Assembly (NCBI GenBank): GCA_017463815.1
Contig: JAFTOK010000072.1
Span: 1 to 48,915 of the forward strand
DNA from: Clostridia bacterium
Lineage (GTDB): Bacteria; Bacillota; Clostridia; Oscillospirales; CAG-272
Length of the DNA: 48,915 bases
Direction of reading: 5' to 3'
The notes beneath the pieces were generated by a model, which worked only from the letters and a program-made list of their open reading frames with translations, did not search any database and had not been told where the DNA came from. The position numbers and the translations under genes are program-made. Positions 21,544-37,371 of the stretch are shown here, piece by piece; position 1 is the stretch's first letter; the number at the start of each line of letters is the position of its first letter.

Positions 21544-21659
21544 AATCGCCAAAGCGATTTTCTTCCTTAACCCGCCGCAGGCGGATTTCACCGACGCCCC
21601 GCGTTGATTTCATATTGCGAAGCAATATTTCACATTTTGCGTCACGCAAAATATTTCAC
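21544..21659. repeat. Tandem array of 5 short GC hairpins, each followed by ATTTCA(C/T) (~21 nt period)
   Basis: AATCGC/GCGATT, CCGCC/GGCGG+ATTTCAC, CGACGC/GCGTTG+ATTTCAT, ATTGC/GCAAT+ATTTCAC, TTTTGCG/CGCAAAA+ATTTCAC. Confidence 0.5.
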
Positions 21660-21667
21660 CGTGCAGA

Positions 21668-23789: not shown

Positions 23790-23865
23790 AATAATACCTC
23801 TCATTCAGGGGATTTTTGTCTATTTTTCGCAAAAGCAGTTGTGCGTTATGCAAAAAACTCCTTCC

Positions 23866-23927
23866 ACCATCTTCGATGGTCCCTCCCTCAAGAGGGAGGC
23901 TCAAATAATTCCCGTTCGCGAAGCGAA
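23866..23927. repeat. Partial copy (hairpins 3-4) of the multi-hairpin repeat family plus TTCGC-GAA-GCGAA hairpin
   Basis: ACCATC-TTC-GATGGT, CCTCCCT-CAAG-AGGGAGG and TTCGC-GAA-GCGAA. Confidence 0.45.
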
Positions 23928-23934
23928 CCCCGAA

Positions 23935-23966
23935 ATTATTCATTATTCACTATTCATTATTCATTA
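23935..23966. repeat. Heptamer tandem repeat (ATTATTC)x4.5
   Basis: attattc attattc actattc attattc atta, read directly from the sequence. Lies between pheA and aroB. Confidence 0.7.
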
Positions 23967-23986
23967 AAACGCGCAAGCGTTTCTAT

Positions 23987-26293: not shown

Positions 26294-26338
26294 AACAAAA
26301 AAATAAAAAACGCAGAACACCTTTTCACGGCACTCTGC
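26294..26338 (-). terminator. Attenuator terminator in the aro operon leader
   Basis: Minus strand GCAGAGTGCC-GTGAAAA-GGTGTTCTGC followed by GTTTTTTATTTTTTT. Sits ~20 nt before the RBS of the aminotransferase gene. Confidence 0.65.
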
Positions 26339-26413
26339 AAACAAAAAACAAATACCGCAAAAAAACCACTGGCATTCTGCGGCACAATTTTCAAACAAAA
26401 TCAAAACTATGCG

Positions 26414-26485
26414 TTATACAGCCTGCCCTACGAAAGTTACAGCGTAATAATAAAATCGCATAGCATAATAAAACATTGTGTTCAT
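26414..26485 (-). CDS. Phe/Tyr-rich leader peptide (23 aa) MNTMFYYAMRFYYYAVTFVGQAV
   Basis: ATG preceded by AAAGGA. 8 of 23 codons are Phe or Tyr, in two clusters. Located between the promoter and the terminator of the aro operon leader. Confidence 0.6.
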   Translation of the reverse strand: MNTMFYYAMRFYYYAVTFVGQAV

Positions 26486-26531
26486 AGCTGTTTTTTCCTT
26501 TCGTATGCGGCTTTCATCCGCTTTTTGTTTA

Positions 26532-26560
26532 ATTATACACTCATAAAAATACCGTGTCAA
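26532..26560 (-). promoter_or_regulatory. Sigma-A promoter of the aromatic supraoperon
   Basis: Minus strand TTGACA-17 nt-TATAAT, perfect consensus. Confidence 0.7.
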
Positions 26561-26749: not shown

Positions 26750-26790
26750 ATAATTACAGAGAAAAACAAAATGCGATAGGAGCGATGATT

Positions 26791-27177
26791 ATGAAAAAAG
26801 AACTTGTGAGCCTGCCGGACGCCGAATTTGAAGTGATGAGCGCCTTGTGGCATTGTAACGCCGAATTTGTGCCCACCACGGAAATTTTAGCGCAGATGAA
26901 AACCGAAAAGAAAGCGCAGACGGTTCTCACAATGCTCACGCGCCTTGCGGATAAGGGCTTCCTTTCCTCCCGCAAAAACGGCAAGGAAAGGCTTTGGAAA
27001 GCCGAAGTGAGCGAGGAAGAATACCGTTCTTCCGAGGCAAAAAGAATCGTAGAAAAAGTCTACGGCGGCTCTTTCGTGGGCCTTATCAGCGCATTTTACG
27101 ATGGCAAGGGTCTTTCCGAGGCCGATGCAGAGGAGCTTATAAGCTGGCTCGACAAAGAAAAAGGAAAGAACGGGTAA
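26791..27177 (+). CDS. BlaI/MecI/CopY-family winged-helix transcriptional repressor
   Basis: LPDAEFEVMSALW...TVLTMLTRLADKGFLSSRKNGKE is a typical Penicillinase_R fold sequence. AGGAG lies 8 nt upstream of this ATG. Confidence 0.85.
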   Translation: MKKELVSLPDAEFEVMSALWHCNAEFVPTTEILAQMKTEKKAQTVLTMLTRLADKGFLSSRKNGKERLWKAEVSEEEYRSSEAKRIVEKVYGGSFVGLISAFYDGKGLSEADAEELISWLDKEKGKNG

Positions 27178-27181
27178 TGCT

Positions 27182-28729
27182 ATGGAAATGGCGATTACAC
27201 AGCTCATTTTCGCAAGTATAACCGCAGTTTTGTTCATTTTGGCAAACTGCGCCGCGAGAAAGCGCGTGTCTGCGTGTGTGCGGTATGCCGTAGGTGTGGT
27301 TTTGGTGGCGGTGTTTATGCTGCCCGTAAGATTCCCACTTATGCGCATAAACATTCAGGCAGAAACGGCAGAAACCGCTTATTTCGAGCAAACTCCCGCA
27401 GGGAGCACGCAGGCGGGCATAGAAACGCCTGCTTTGCCGAATGCGGTGCCGCCCGAAAACTCGCCCTATGTGCCTTACGCGGAAAACCTTATTGTTGCAA
27501 TCTACGTATCAGGGGTGATTATCTCGCTTTTTTGCATCTTTTTCCGCTACTGCAGAGCGGCAAAAGCCTTGCAACGGTGCGGACGCGCACCCACGGAGCA
27601 AGAAAAACGCCTTTTGCTCGAGATTTGCGCAGAACAAGGTGTTTCCCGTGCGCCGCGGATGCTCGTTTGCCCGCAAAACGCCATCGGTTCTTCCCTGATG
27701 TTTGGATTCAGGCGGCAGACCGTTCTTATATCGGATAATATGGAGGAAGGGGCGCTGCGGCTTATTTTAGGGCACGAAATAACGCACTGCAAGCGGAAAG
27801 ATTCCGTTTTCAAGGCATTTCTTGCCCTGCTCGGCTCGCTTTATTGGTTCAACCCAATAATTCACCTCTTTATACGCACGATGAACAGCCTTTGCGAAGA
27901 ATCCTGCGATGAAAAATTCCTTAGCGGCAGCAGCTACGAAAGAAAACTGCAATATTGCCGCCTGCTTATCGGCACCGCTGCCGCTAAAAGCAAAAACAAA
28001 ACAATTTTTACTACTTTTAAAGGAGGCAGTAAAACTATGAAAAGACGACTTGAAAATATACTGAATAAAAAAAGCAAAATTGTAGCAGCCGTTCTCGTGG
28101 TTTCCGTACTTCTTGTAACAATGCTCACATCCGCAATCTATTTCACGCTCCCGCCAAACAACGTAAAGGTGGCATACCTTGATGAGTGGGATAAGGTTTG
28201 GTCTTCTTTGGGCGAAAACGACACTGTAAAAAGCGACTATGATGTGGAATATCAATATTCCGTGAATTCCGATGAAATTACGGTTACGGGTATTGTAAAC
28301 GGAAAGTCGTTTGACGTTACGGGCAAGCTCGTTTCCCGCAATCACAACGGAGCAAAGCTTTTCTACGATTTTTCCCCCGATAAAAAGGGAAATTACAATG
28401 TAAAACACCTTAGCGTTCAGCTTGCACAACACACGGAAATCGAAGCACCCGCGGACCACAACCCCGAACACGGGAGCTGGAATCATTCGCTTAAAGCTTT
28501 TTTCAGCGATTTTGCAAAAAACAACCCAAAATATAAAAATATGCTTGCGCTCTACCTCAATCCTATCGGCACAGATGATATTTTGGTAATAGAAATTTTC
28601 TTGGAAGAAGATTTTCTTACAGCGTACAGCGCACAAAACGAAGTACCTTATACCGAAGAAGGAAGCAAACATCTTAATTGGTTTGTTTATTGGTATGAAG
28701 AAAACGGTGCTTTTGATTTAGATGAGTGA
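27182..28729 (+). CDS. BlaR1/MecR1-like M56 zinc-metalloprotease signal transducer with a non-PBP extracytoplasmic C-terminal domain
   Basis: HEITHCKRKD (HExxH) plus the WFNP motif of Peptidase_M56. Multiple TM segments. The C-terminal ~200 aa has no SxxK/KTG penicillin-binding motifs. Confidence 0.8.
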   Translation: MEMAITQLIFASITAVLFILANCAARKRVSACVRYAVGVVLVAVFMLPVRFPLMRINIQAETAETAYFEQTPAGSTQAGIETPALPNAVPPENSPYVPYAENLIVAIYVSGVIISLFCIFFRYCRAAKALQRCGRAPTEQEKRLLLEICAEQGVSRAPRMLVCPQNAIGSSLMFGFRRQTVLISDNMEEGALRLILGHEITHCKRKDSVFKAFLALLGSLYWFNPIIHLFIRTMNSLCEESCDEKFLSGSSYERKLQYCRLLIGTAAAKSKNKTIFTTFKGGSKTMKRRLENILNKKSKIVAAVLVVSVLLVTMLTSAIYFTLPPNNVKVAYLDEWDKVWSSLGENDTVKSDYDVEYQYSVNSDEITVTGIVNGKSFDVTGKLVSRNHNGAKLFYDFSPDKKGNYNVKHLSVQLAQHTEIEAPADHNPEHGSWNHSLKAFFSDFAKNNPKYKNMLALYLNPIGTDDILVIEIFLEEDFLTAYSAQNEVPYTEEGSKHLNWFVYWYEENGAFDLDE

Positions 28730-37093: not shown

Positions 37094-37273
37094 CTTTTCT
37101 CTATTTCCTTCCTGATTTGGGTATTTACGCATTTACTACGTATATTTTACCATATTTGCGGTTAAATTGCAGTAAATAATCTTTAAAAATTCTGTAAATT
37201 TATTGTCGAAAAGCTAAAATTCGGCGCTATTTTCGCCGTTTTCGGGTATTTTATTTTTCTTCGCCAAAAACTA

Positions 37274-37302
37274 TTGACAATTTTCTTTTGTAAAACTATA
37301 AT
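37274..37302 (+). promoter_or_regulatory. Sigma-A promoter of ilvA-ridA
   Basis: TTGACA-17 nt-TATAAT, perfect consensus. Confidence 0.6.
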
Positions 37303-37326
37303 ATTTTTATGATATATTTGAGTGGC

Positions 37327-37360
37327 AACCGCCCAATATCGGGGCGGTTTTCACTTTTTT
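37327..37360 (+). promoter_or_regulatory. Terminator-like hairpin inside the ilvA 5-prime leader
   Basis: AACCGCCC-N7-GGGCGGTT followed by TTCACTTTTTT. It abuts the GGAGG RBS. Confidence 0.45.
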
Positions 37361-37371
37361 GGAGGCATATT

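Follow-up and report, generated by a model that had tools for sequence, protein, structure and literature searches.

Attenuators of aromatic amino acid genes in Firmicutes

Transcription attenuators in which a short upstream open reading frame (uORF) encodes a Phe/Tyr-rich peptide have been catalogued bioinformatically by Stav et al. 2019 (BMC Microbiol 19:66, PMC6429828), whose "aromatic amino acid attenuators" uORF-12 and uORF-13 (see Fig. 6b, Table S1) consist of such peptides followed by terminators, before shikimate and Phe/Tyr genes or transporters. The uORF-12 motif has 1258 representatives, of which 90% belong to Firmicutes (Bacilli, Clostridia, Erysipelotrichia), and uORF-13 has 336, Clostridiales included (PMC6429828). 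The subject here is a leader of about 250 nucleotides (nt) on the minus strand of contig JAFTOK010000072.1 (GenBank assembly GCA_017463815.1), whose positions 1 to 48,915, the whole stretch of DNA that was analysed, are called the window. Its source is an uncultured Clostridia bacterium, and the aminotransferase encoded by the first gene after the leader is 96% identical to one of a roe-deer caecum metagenome-assembled genome (MAG). The leader is very likely a ribosome-mediated leader-peptide transcription attenuator that senses charged tRNA-Phe and tRNA-Tyr and controls a nine-gene aromatic operon. A sequence-only reading had already proposed attenuation of the pheA/trp type for it; the assignment to leader-peptide attenuators can be kept with high confidence, and the wiring of the mechanism is corrected below. 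The same reading took a leader-peptide attenuator to be unusual in Firmicutes, a view outdated by the 2019 catalogue (PMC6429828). The element is not a new principle, since such attenuators in Firmicutes are on record from that year, and it is best filed as a lineage-specific addition to the already described Phe/Tyr leader attenuators.

Some further examples have been described in other genes or lineages. In Corynebacterium glutamicum, aroR encodes a Phe-Tyr-Phe leader peptide before a DAHP-synthase operon and has transcriptome support; it responds to Phe limitation and, in the account of Neshat et al. 2014 given in PMC11802643, reportedly not to Tyr. The uORFC-13-1 element (Brewer et al. 2021, PMC8632094) presents Phe codons upstream of aroF in Acholeplasma. 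For the Leu-rich attenuator peptide of Staphylococcus aureus ilvD, genetic support comes from mutations of the peptide as well as of the terminator, and the antiterminator sequesters the poly-U tract (PMC5794164). These last two are leader-peptide attenuators of Firmicutes/Tenericutes with another amino-acid specificity or lineage, and they have no sequence relationship to the leader studied here.

A conserved Phe/Tyr-rich leader ORF

Transcription of the leader would start near 26525, just past a sigma-70-type promoter (26532-26560, minus strand) made of TTGACA at 26560-26555, a 17-nt spacer and TATAAT at 26537-26532. The promoter agrees with the consensus at 12 of 12 positions and was the top promoter-like site in an 11-kb scan, and related leaders have a TTGACA -35 box and a -10 box at the matching relative place. 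The leader ORF occupies 26414-26485 on the same strand, with its AUG at 26485 and its UAA ending at 26414, and is preceded, 10 nt before the AUG, by the Shine-Dalgarno sequence GAAAGGA (26496-26502, minus; GAAAGGA or GGAGG at the equal position in relatives). It comprises 23 codons, MNTMFYYAMRFYYYAVTFVGQAV, eight of whose 23 residues are Phe or Tyr and none Trp, and the cluster CGA UUU UAU UAU UAC (Arg-Phe-Tyr-Tyr-Tyr; 26444-26458, minus) is the proposed stall site. Promoter, uORF, Shine-Dalgarno sequence, terminator and the near-duplicate of a terminator arm all lie on the minus strand exactly where the sequence-only reading had placed them. The operon downstream contains the whole shikimate pathway together with the Phe and Tyr branches, and Pfam/NCBIfam annotation found no trp genes among its members, so its gene content matches the codons of the leader; this confirms the earlier statement that the operon makes Phe and Tyr, in which the DAHP synthase had been overlooked.

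Decisive support for the uORF comes from its conservation in other genomes. For the comparison, 80 species-level loci with an orthologous aminotransferase were retrieved, and metagenomes were scanned with a pattern made of the uORF core plus R1, the antiterminator strand described in the next section. A uORF with a Phe/Tyr cluster stands upstream of the aminotransferase in 49 of the 80 loci, at a distance of 90-280 nt, or of about 370 nt in L029 and L035 owing to an insert. It is also present in all four metagenome loci and in further relatives, which brings the total to more than 55 Clostridia loci and bears out the expectation that related genomes would conserve it. The four loci of the pattern scan all have the identical operon, and the scan revealed no other regulated genes. 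Carriers belong to the window's own clade and to many MAGs labelled Acutalibacteraceae, Oscillospiraceae or Ruminococcaceae (class Clostridia), the aminotransferases of the latter being 60-65% identical to that of the window. Some examples of the leader peptides are MFRGFGYYRFYYNSLDCLCSAGNCK, MIRNFVFRFFYFINADCLCTE, MFGCVNYRFYYFKTDCLYACKA and MKKMYYYAMRFYYYTASL.

The codons of the core behave in a characteristic way among 45 distinct uORFs. Its Arg is encoded by CGA and its first Phe by UUU in 45 of 45, the following two positions are always Tyr or Phe, and the second Tyr/Phe position after CGA-UUU varies freely between synonymous codons (UAC 24, UAU 19). In 62% there is a fourth aromatic residue, the four codons preceding the core Arg are 38-64% Phe/Tyr, and the next three codons past the core include no Phe or Tyr. 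The synonymous UAC/UAU variation and the interchange of Phe and Tyr point to selection on translated codons. Moreover, the reading frame, the Shine-Dalgarno sequence, the Phe/Tyr enrichment and the position of the stop codon relative to R1 and the inner hairpin are kept across lineages whose leaders otherwise diverge; the part of the peptide before the core shows no conservation between subtypes. A scan of all retrieved sequences for other uORFs with Phe/Tyr runs plus a terminator returned only artefacts within coding regions.

A side observation on the core is that CGA is invariant at a non-regulatory Arg codon although neighbouring codons vary synonymously, and UUU is likewise fixed. Pairing of CGAUUUU with a downstream AAAAUUG was considered as the cause of this conservation and dropped after inspection by eye, the partner not being conserved between subtypes.

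The leader is lineage-specific. Fifteen loci and L085-L087 have the operon with a promoter 30-60 nt from the start codon, and neither uORF nor terminator was found in any of them. Five of the leaderless loci (L046, L056, L065, L071 and L073) have in common a repeat, TTTAAAsnGTAAmACTTTAAAs, about 100-220 nt upstream of the aminotransferase and upstream of the promoter, which is possibly a transcription-factor site replacing the attenuator in leaderless lineages. Intermediate arrangements were also seen: L038 (2870-2975) retains the terminator and has lost promoter and uORF, a small membrane-protein gene upstream extending up to the terminator, and the insert of L029 and L035, about 300 nt long, lies between the leader terminator and the aminotransferase start.

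A probable antiterminator in simple-type leaders

The related leaders were aligned as two sets, a simple type of 42 distinct leaders (alignment A1) and a window type with a longer leader (the window, L001-L006, L081-L084, L088-L091 and L093; alignments A2 and A3). In the simple type, the segment R1, GGAUUGUCUGUGC, lies inside the uORF, 5-8 nt past the aromatic block, and pairs with the downstream segment R2, GUAUAGACAGUCC, in a helix that encloses a small hairpin across the uORF stop codon. The R1:R2 helix is 92% paired, with 6 of its 13 pairs changed on both sides; none of 500 shuffles reached the observed values, and sliding the partner by 1-3 columns lowers the pairing to 27-47%. The base helix of the terminator is 99% paired, with both sides changed in 3 of 7 pairs. 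Four nt are common to the end of R2 and the 5' start of the terminator (alignment columns 94-97), where they co-vary with both partners, and because the last four nt of R2 are the first four of the terminator, R1:R2 and the terminator are mutually exclusive.

Structure prediction without hints leads to the same two helices. RNAalifold returns R1:R2 as the sole conserved helix before the 3' arm of the terminator is present, and the terminator for the full leader. On the simple-type alignment it found no helix upstream of R1 that would correspond to a trp-like segment 1, no conserved stem around the aromatic codons and no extra conserved structure able to serve as an aptamer. Before the 3' arm exists, the minimum-energy fold contains R1:R2 in all 42 leaders; masking R1 gives the terminator in all 42, and leaving R1 free makes the antiterminator the minimum-energy structure in 30. 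This comparison supports R1:R2, mutually exclusive with the terminator, as the probable antiterminator, and the geometry suggests that its formation depends on the ribosome. Of the pheA/trp-type scheme, the class of leader-peptide attenuator stands, but the four-segment wiring does not, RNAalifold giving no segment 1. The compensatory changes anticipated in orthologous leaders likewise occur in R1:R2 and the terminator of the simple type, but not within 11 window-type leaders.

Five segments and two predicted terminators in the window

The window subtype is more elaborate and can be described by five segments, all on the minus strand. R1, GGCAGGCUGU (26418-26427), covers the last codons of the uORF and is the 5' strand of antiterminator 1; it pairs with 26380-26371 in folds, and its window-type consensus is GGCAG(G/U)CUGU. 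In L002-L005 the uORF stops directly before R1, rather than after it, so R1 is conserved as RNA and not as codons. R2, GUGCCGCAGAAUGCC (26371-26385), has two roles, as 3' strand of antiterminator 1 and as 5' arm of a first terminator, T1. It is invariant in all window-type leaders and has R1 and R3 as alternative partners. The part that faces R1 is GCAGAAUGCC, and R1:R2 encloses the inner hairpin P, GCAUAGUUUU...AAAAUUGUGC (26382-26412), whose 3' arm has the sequence GUGC in common with the 5' arm of T1.

T1 is the hairpin GUGCCGCAGAA...UUUUGCGGUAU (26385-26352), with a folding energy of -15.8 kcal/mol. R3 (26339-26363) unites its 3' arm (26362-26352) with the U-rich tail UUGUUUUUUGUUU (26351-26339) and serves also as the 5' strand of antiterminator 2, the 3' strand of which is R4 (26322-26339), composed of the 5' arm of the second terminator T2 (26339-26329) and an A-rich loop (26328-26322). 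R5 (26297-26321) comprises the 3' arm of T2, GGUGUUCUGCG (26321-26311), and the U tract (26310-26297). In T2, UGCAGAGUGCC (26339-26329) pairs with GGUGUUCUGCG (26321-26311) and is followed by UUUUUUAUUUUUUU (26310-26297); its fold of -12.6 kcal/mol has z = -2.9, and it was also picked up by a terminator scan. In the 11 closest leaders, R1:R2 is 100% paired, T1 99%, T2 95%, P 90% and R3:R4 76-88%.

Folds of seven leaders with the ribosome placed at either of two positions are compatible with a relay. With the ribosome at the Phe/Tyr codons, R1:R2 and P form in all seven (-20.4 to -24.3 kcal/mol); with the ribosome at the stop codon, T1 forms in all seven and T2 is the minimum-energy structure in five. 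Pairing of R3 (UUUUUGCGG...) with R4 before R5 appears is found in each of the seven at -10.7 to -18.3 kcal/mol, and T2 alone has -12.6 to -18.1 kcal/mol. In the divergent L088-L090, R3 and R4 are altered on both strands (CGGAUAUU...CACCG with CGGUG...GGAUAUCCG) and the pairing is kept. In this group R3:R4 reaches -24.8 kcal/mol, against -18.6 for T2, and is the minimum-energy structure even with R5 present. These two-strand changes are the best evidence for the relay.

A covariance model built from simple-type leaders only was run on the window-type leaders and matched L004, L002, L003 and L082 at E = 7e-4 to 6e-3. In the window the match ends at 26344, with the terminator of the model aligned to T1, which makes T1 the ancestral terminator and T2 an addition. 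The sequence-only reading had recognized T2 as the single terminator and had missed T1, the homologue of the simple-type terminator. A second match of the model in the window (37238-37357, 17.2 bits) was set aside, as it covers an unrelated promoter and a terminator-like hairpin and stems from the terminator only. This region holds on the plus strand, at 37274-37370, a promoter TTGACA-17-TATAAT, a hairpin GGCAACCGCCC..GGGGCGGUUUUC, a U run and then the next gene's ribosome-binding site. It is a candidate second leader-terminator, and no Phe/Tyr uORF was found in it.

Another feature of the subtype is a 5'-terminal hairpin, GCGG-AUGAAAG-CCGC (26507-26521, minus; -5.9 kcal/mol, z = -2.5), which begins a few nt past the predicted transcription start. 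Its stem is kept and its loops vary in all window-type leaders, and it is absent from the simple type. It may stabilise the 5' end of the mRNA.

Proposed mechanism and alternative explanations

The sequences directly support a conserved uORF, covariation of R1:R2 and the terminator in the simple type, and compatible helices in the window subtype; the ribosome positions (taken from standard footprint sizes), the timing, the strength of termination at T1 and T2 and the regulation by Phe and Tyr are inferred. In the proposed mechanism, RNA polymerase would start at the consensus promoter and a ribosome would translate the 23-codon leader. When Phe or Tyr is scarce, the ribosome would stall at CGA-UUU-UAU-UAU-UAC, 16 nt upstream of R1, and the free R1 would pair with R2 around hairpin P, sequestering the 5' arm of T1. 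R3, then unpaired, would pair with R4, R5 would be left partnerless, and the polymerase would pass both U tracts. When Phe and Tyr are plentiful, the ribosome would run through R1 to the stop codon and mask it, R2:R3 would form T1, R4 (or R2) would form T2 with R5, and transcription would end. An untranslated leader would be read through by default: as no upstream segment pairs with R1, the ribosome itself would play the role of anti-antiterminator.

Several results weigh against this mechanism. The uORF of this one sequence is marginally significant (P ~0.03) and the leader is U-rich: of 5000 dinucleotide-preserving shuffles of the 257-nt leader, considering AUG ORFs of 10-45 codons, 3.4% have an ORF with at least eight Phe/Tyr codons and 1.7% one with a Phe/Tyr run of at least four. 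The covariance model scores the window weakly (26344-26463, 19.3 bits, E = 0.23), and in several relatives the U tract of T1 contains interruptions or is displaced by 1-3 nt. The 11 window-type leaders are nearly invariant, and covariation among them is no better than in shuffles. R3:R4 is weaker than T2 in three of the seven folded leaders, and the relay through it is a well-motivated inference from folding energies and one divergent group. When R3 is present and R1 is still free, five of seven window-type leaders have T1 as their minimum-energy structure, so read-through must be decided kinetically. Additionally, the mechanism requires a ribosome that does not fall behind RNA polymerase, and for Bacillus subtilis this has been called into question (PMC7858274). 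For termination, a ribosome would have to reach R1 before the polymerase completes about 70 nt; if the mechanism is true, its wide conservation would point to tight ribosome-polymerase coordination in these Clostridia, in contrast with the "runaway transcription" picture of B. subtilis.

The other explanations fare worse. That the uORF arose by chance in a U-rich spacer and that the tandem terminators after it are ordinary ones without a regulatory role is hardly credible. The marginal enrichment in the window could be cited in its favour, but a consensus promoter precedes the terminators and the first operon gene follows them, all on one strand, and across Clostridia families whose aminotransferases are only 60-65% identical the uORF is conserved along with both alternative helices, with covariation. 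This comparison already contradicts the chance-ORF explanation. There is a small probability that a trans-acting factor, an RNA-binding protein or uncharged tRNA, drives the switch and that the small ORF is incidental or modulatory. Firmicutes often employ T-box, TRAP or PyrR-type factors, as is generally known, and the fixation of CGA-UUU at the nucleotide level could reflect contact with RNA or protein. However, Rfam has no family over the leader even at permissive thresholds (window at the gathering threshold, leader at E up to 10, eight leader loci at E up to 1), and the T-box RF00230 in particular has no match in the leader at E up to 10 or in the relatives at E up to 1, so that the T-box or other riboswitch which would have told against the sequence-only reading was not found. 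A further Rfam scan of 20 leaderless loci gave no known family covering the leader. The scan was sensitive enough, for it recovered a true T-box of 110 bits in L017, an Acutalibacteraceae MAG, at 2217-2473 on the opposite strand, divergent from and upstream of the aromatic leader; its position also indicates that both mechanisms coexist in these genomes. A repeated protein-binding motif was not noticed either, RNAalifold offers no aptamer-like structure, and the frame, Shine-Dalgarno sequence, stop position and Phe/Tyr enrichment, the last with synonymous changes, are kept across lineages.

An equally small chance is given to the possibility that Arg-Phe-Tyr-Tyr acts as an arrest peptide with another signal than tRNA charging, such as a free amino acid in the exit tunnel, as in TnaC. 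The invariance of CGA and the first UUU in 45 distinct leaders is in its favour, because ordinary leader peptides conserve regulatory codons only. Yet an operon for biosynthesis has to be induced when its product is scarce, and stalling at codons achieves this directly; the interchange of Phe and Tyr and the variable flanking residues fit the sensing of "hungry codons", and the subtypes have no conserved peptide sequence in common before the core. Slightly less probable still is the wiring of the sequence-only reading itself, with one terminator (26338-26312), an antiterminator formed by 26381-26371 and the 3' arm of the terminator, and GGCAGGCUG as a trp-like segment 1. Its pairings are real: GGCAGGCUG (26427-26419) is complementary to the 26381-26371 arm and pairs with it in folds, and that near-duplicate arm, CGCAGAAUGCC, can pair with 26321-26311 over 11 bp, a potential 98% paired in 11 related leaders, in a helix that sits in the full-length minimum-energy fold, nested around R3:R4. 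But the helix abuts the U tract and is topologically terminator-closing, so it would itself close a terminator, and it is impossible until the 3' arm has been transcribed. With a ribosome stalled 16 nt upstream of R1, R1 would be free for R2, the supposed antiterminator would be blocked and termination would follow under starvation, the opposite of what an operon for biosynthesis needs. Moreover, this wiring leaves out T1, the homologue of the only terminator in the 42 simpler relatives. The potential for the pairing follows automatically from the duplication of the arms, and no covariation was found in it among the 11 related leaders. It is interpreted as a side effect of the R2-like/R4-like and R3-like/R5-like duplication, and would at most close T2 by an additional route, in which case read-through would need R2 and R4 both masked.

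The leader-peptide attenuator with R1:R2 as its antiterminator offers a testable regulatory model for a sizeable set of uncultured gut and rumen Clostridia, namely Acutalibacteraceae, Oscillospiraceae and Ruminococcaceae-type MAGs and the window's own clade, which run the entire shikimate/Phe/Tyr pathway off one promoter. It would be a natural case of one ribosome-sensing event relayed to two terminators. Repression would need a ribosome that catches up with the polymerase, which may make the family useful for probing how transcription and translation are coordinated in Clostridia. The points of interest to specialists are the default-on three-strand logic, the two-terminator relay and the invariant CGA-UUU.

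The operon and its neighbourhood

The leader precedes nine co-directional genes that extend from 26274 to 16626 on the minus strand and were assigned by Pfam and NCBIfam matches. They encode, in order, a pyridoxal phosphate-dependent aminotransferase (NF005305), chorismate mutase/prephenate dehydratase (pheA), aroB, aroC, an aroE-aroK fusion, aroQ, aroA, tyrA and, at the end of the operon, DAHP synthase (aroF), which has no leader of its own. The identical nine-gene order recurs in contigs of related genomes.

Two spacers within the operon are unusual. A Gut-1 RNA (Rfam RF01706) at 21580-21661, minus strand, scores 51.9 bits against a gathering score of 50 and fills the spacer between aroC and aroE-aroK exactly, with small hairpins in a row spaced by GUGAAAU. 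In four related operons, one of them with a 94% identical aroF, this spacer is only 8-77 nt long and Gut-1 occurs nowhere in the locus, so it is an insertion particular to the window genome. The pheA-aroB spacer measures 182 nt (23805-23986, minus), compared with only 11-45 nt in relatives, and contains GAATAAT-like tandem repeats and three GC-rich hairpins (GUUCGC..GCGAAC, CCUCCCUC..GGGAGGG and ACCAUC..GAUGGU). It could be an internal promoter or a regulatory element that keeps the common pathway on at high Phe/Tyr. Divergent from the operon, at 26785-28729 on the plus strand, lie genes for a BlaI/MecI/CopY-type repressor and a BlaR1-type M56 peptidase; the upstream neighbour in relatives is an ABC transporter and not such a BlaI/BlaR1-type pair.

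Comparison with known systems

The closest described systems are uORF-12 and uORF-13, with which the present family has in common a short Phe/Tyr-rich ORF, a terminator stem, a location upstream of shikimate/Phe/Tyr genes and a distribution in Firmicutes including Clostridia, with many environmental sequences. In the uORF-13 motif, the loop of stem P1 holds the F-Y-F consensus, and the motif stands mostly before aroF or tyrA (PMC6429828). By this published description the present family differs from it, since its core is R-F-Y-Y, the aromatic codons are not surrounded by a conserved stem, aroF comes last in the operon and lacks a leader, and the first gene is always the aminotransferase, followed by pheA. 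A search for uORF-13 examples through DAHP synthase homologues returned, among the 120 matches listed, only relatives at least 76% identical with aroF last in the operon. In uORF-12, an F-Y-rich peptide lies just before stem P1 of a more complex structure, and the regulated genes are mostly amino-acid transporters and sometimes shikimate/Phe/Tyr genes (PMC6429828). The layout of the present family, with core codons 5-16 nt before R1:R2, is compatible with that published description, whereas every example here precedes an aminotransferase-pheA operon and not a transporter gene. The tandem terminators of the window subtype are unmentioned in the descriptions of either motif. The aroR leader is similar in having an aromatic-codon peptide upstream of an operon that contains a DAHP synthase gene, but it belongs to Actinobacteria, and both peptide and RNA structure differ (PMC6429828).

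The pheL-pheA and trpL-trp leaders of Escherichia coli (Yanofsky 1981; PMC3082878) resemble the present family in the clustered codons for the end product, the terminator before the first gene, the exclusive antiterminator and the masking of the 5' strand of that antiterminator by a ribosome at the stop codon. They use four segments, with the regulatory codons in segment 1, which pairs with segment 2, and their untranslated default is termination. In the present family, by contrast, there is no segment 1, the stall site is upstream of all paired RNA and the predicted default is read-through (30 of 42 simple-type leaders). The codons are also mixed, Phe and Tyr here against Phe only, and the hosts are Bacillota against Proteobacteria.

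The his leader of Salmonella and E. coli alternates between the hairpins A:B, C:D and E:F on one side and B:C and D:E on the other. As in that leader, the position of the ribosome would be relayed in the window subtype through more than three alternative helices (R1:R2 and R3:R4 against R2:R3 and R4:R5) to a distal terminator. Only the last hairpin of the his leader terminates, whereas here the intermediate T1, which is the ancestral terminator, has a U-rich tail as well. The two differ in parity as well, with five segments and a stall before the first in the window subtype and six segments and a stall on the first in the his leader. Set beside all these systems, the leader may perhaps represent a distinct design, a proposal that is put forward tentatively and rated rather unlikely: a default-on three-strand switch in which the ribosome is the anti-antiterminator, a relay of one stall to two terminators, and a CGA-UUU that may be tuned as a slow-decoding or arrest module.

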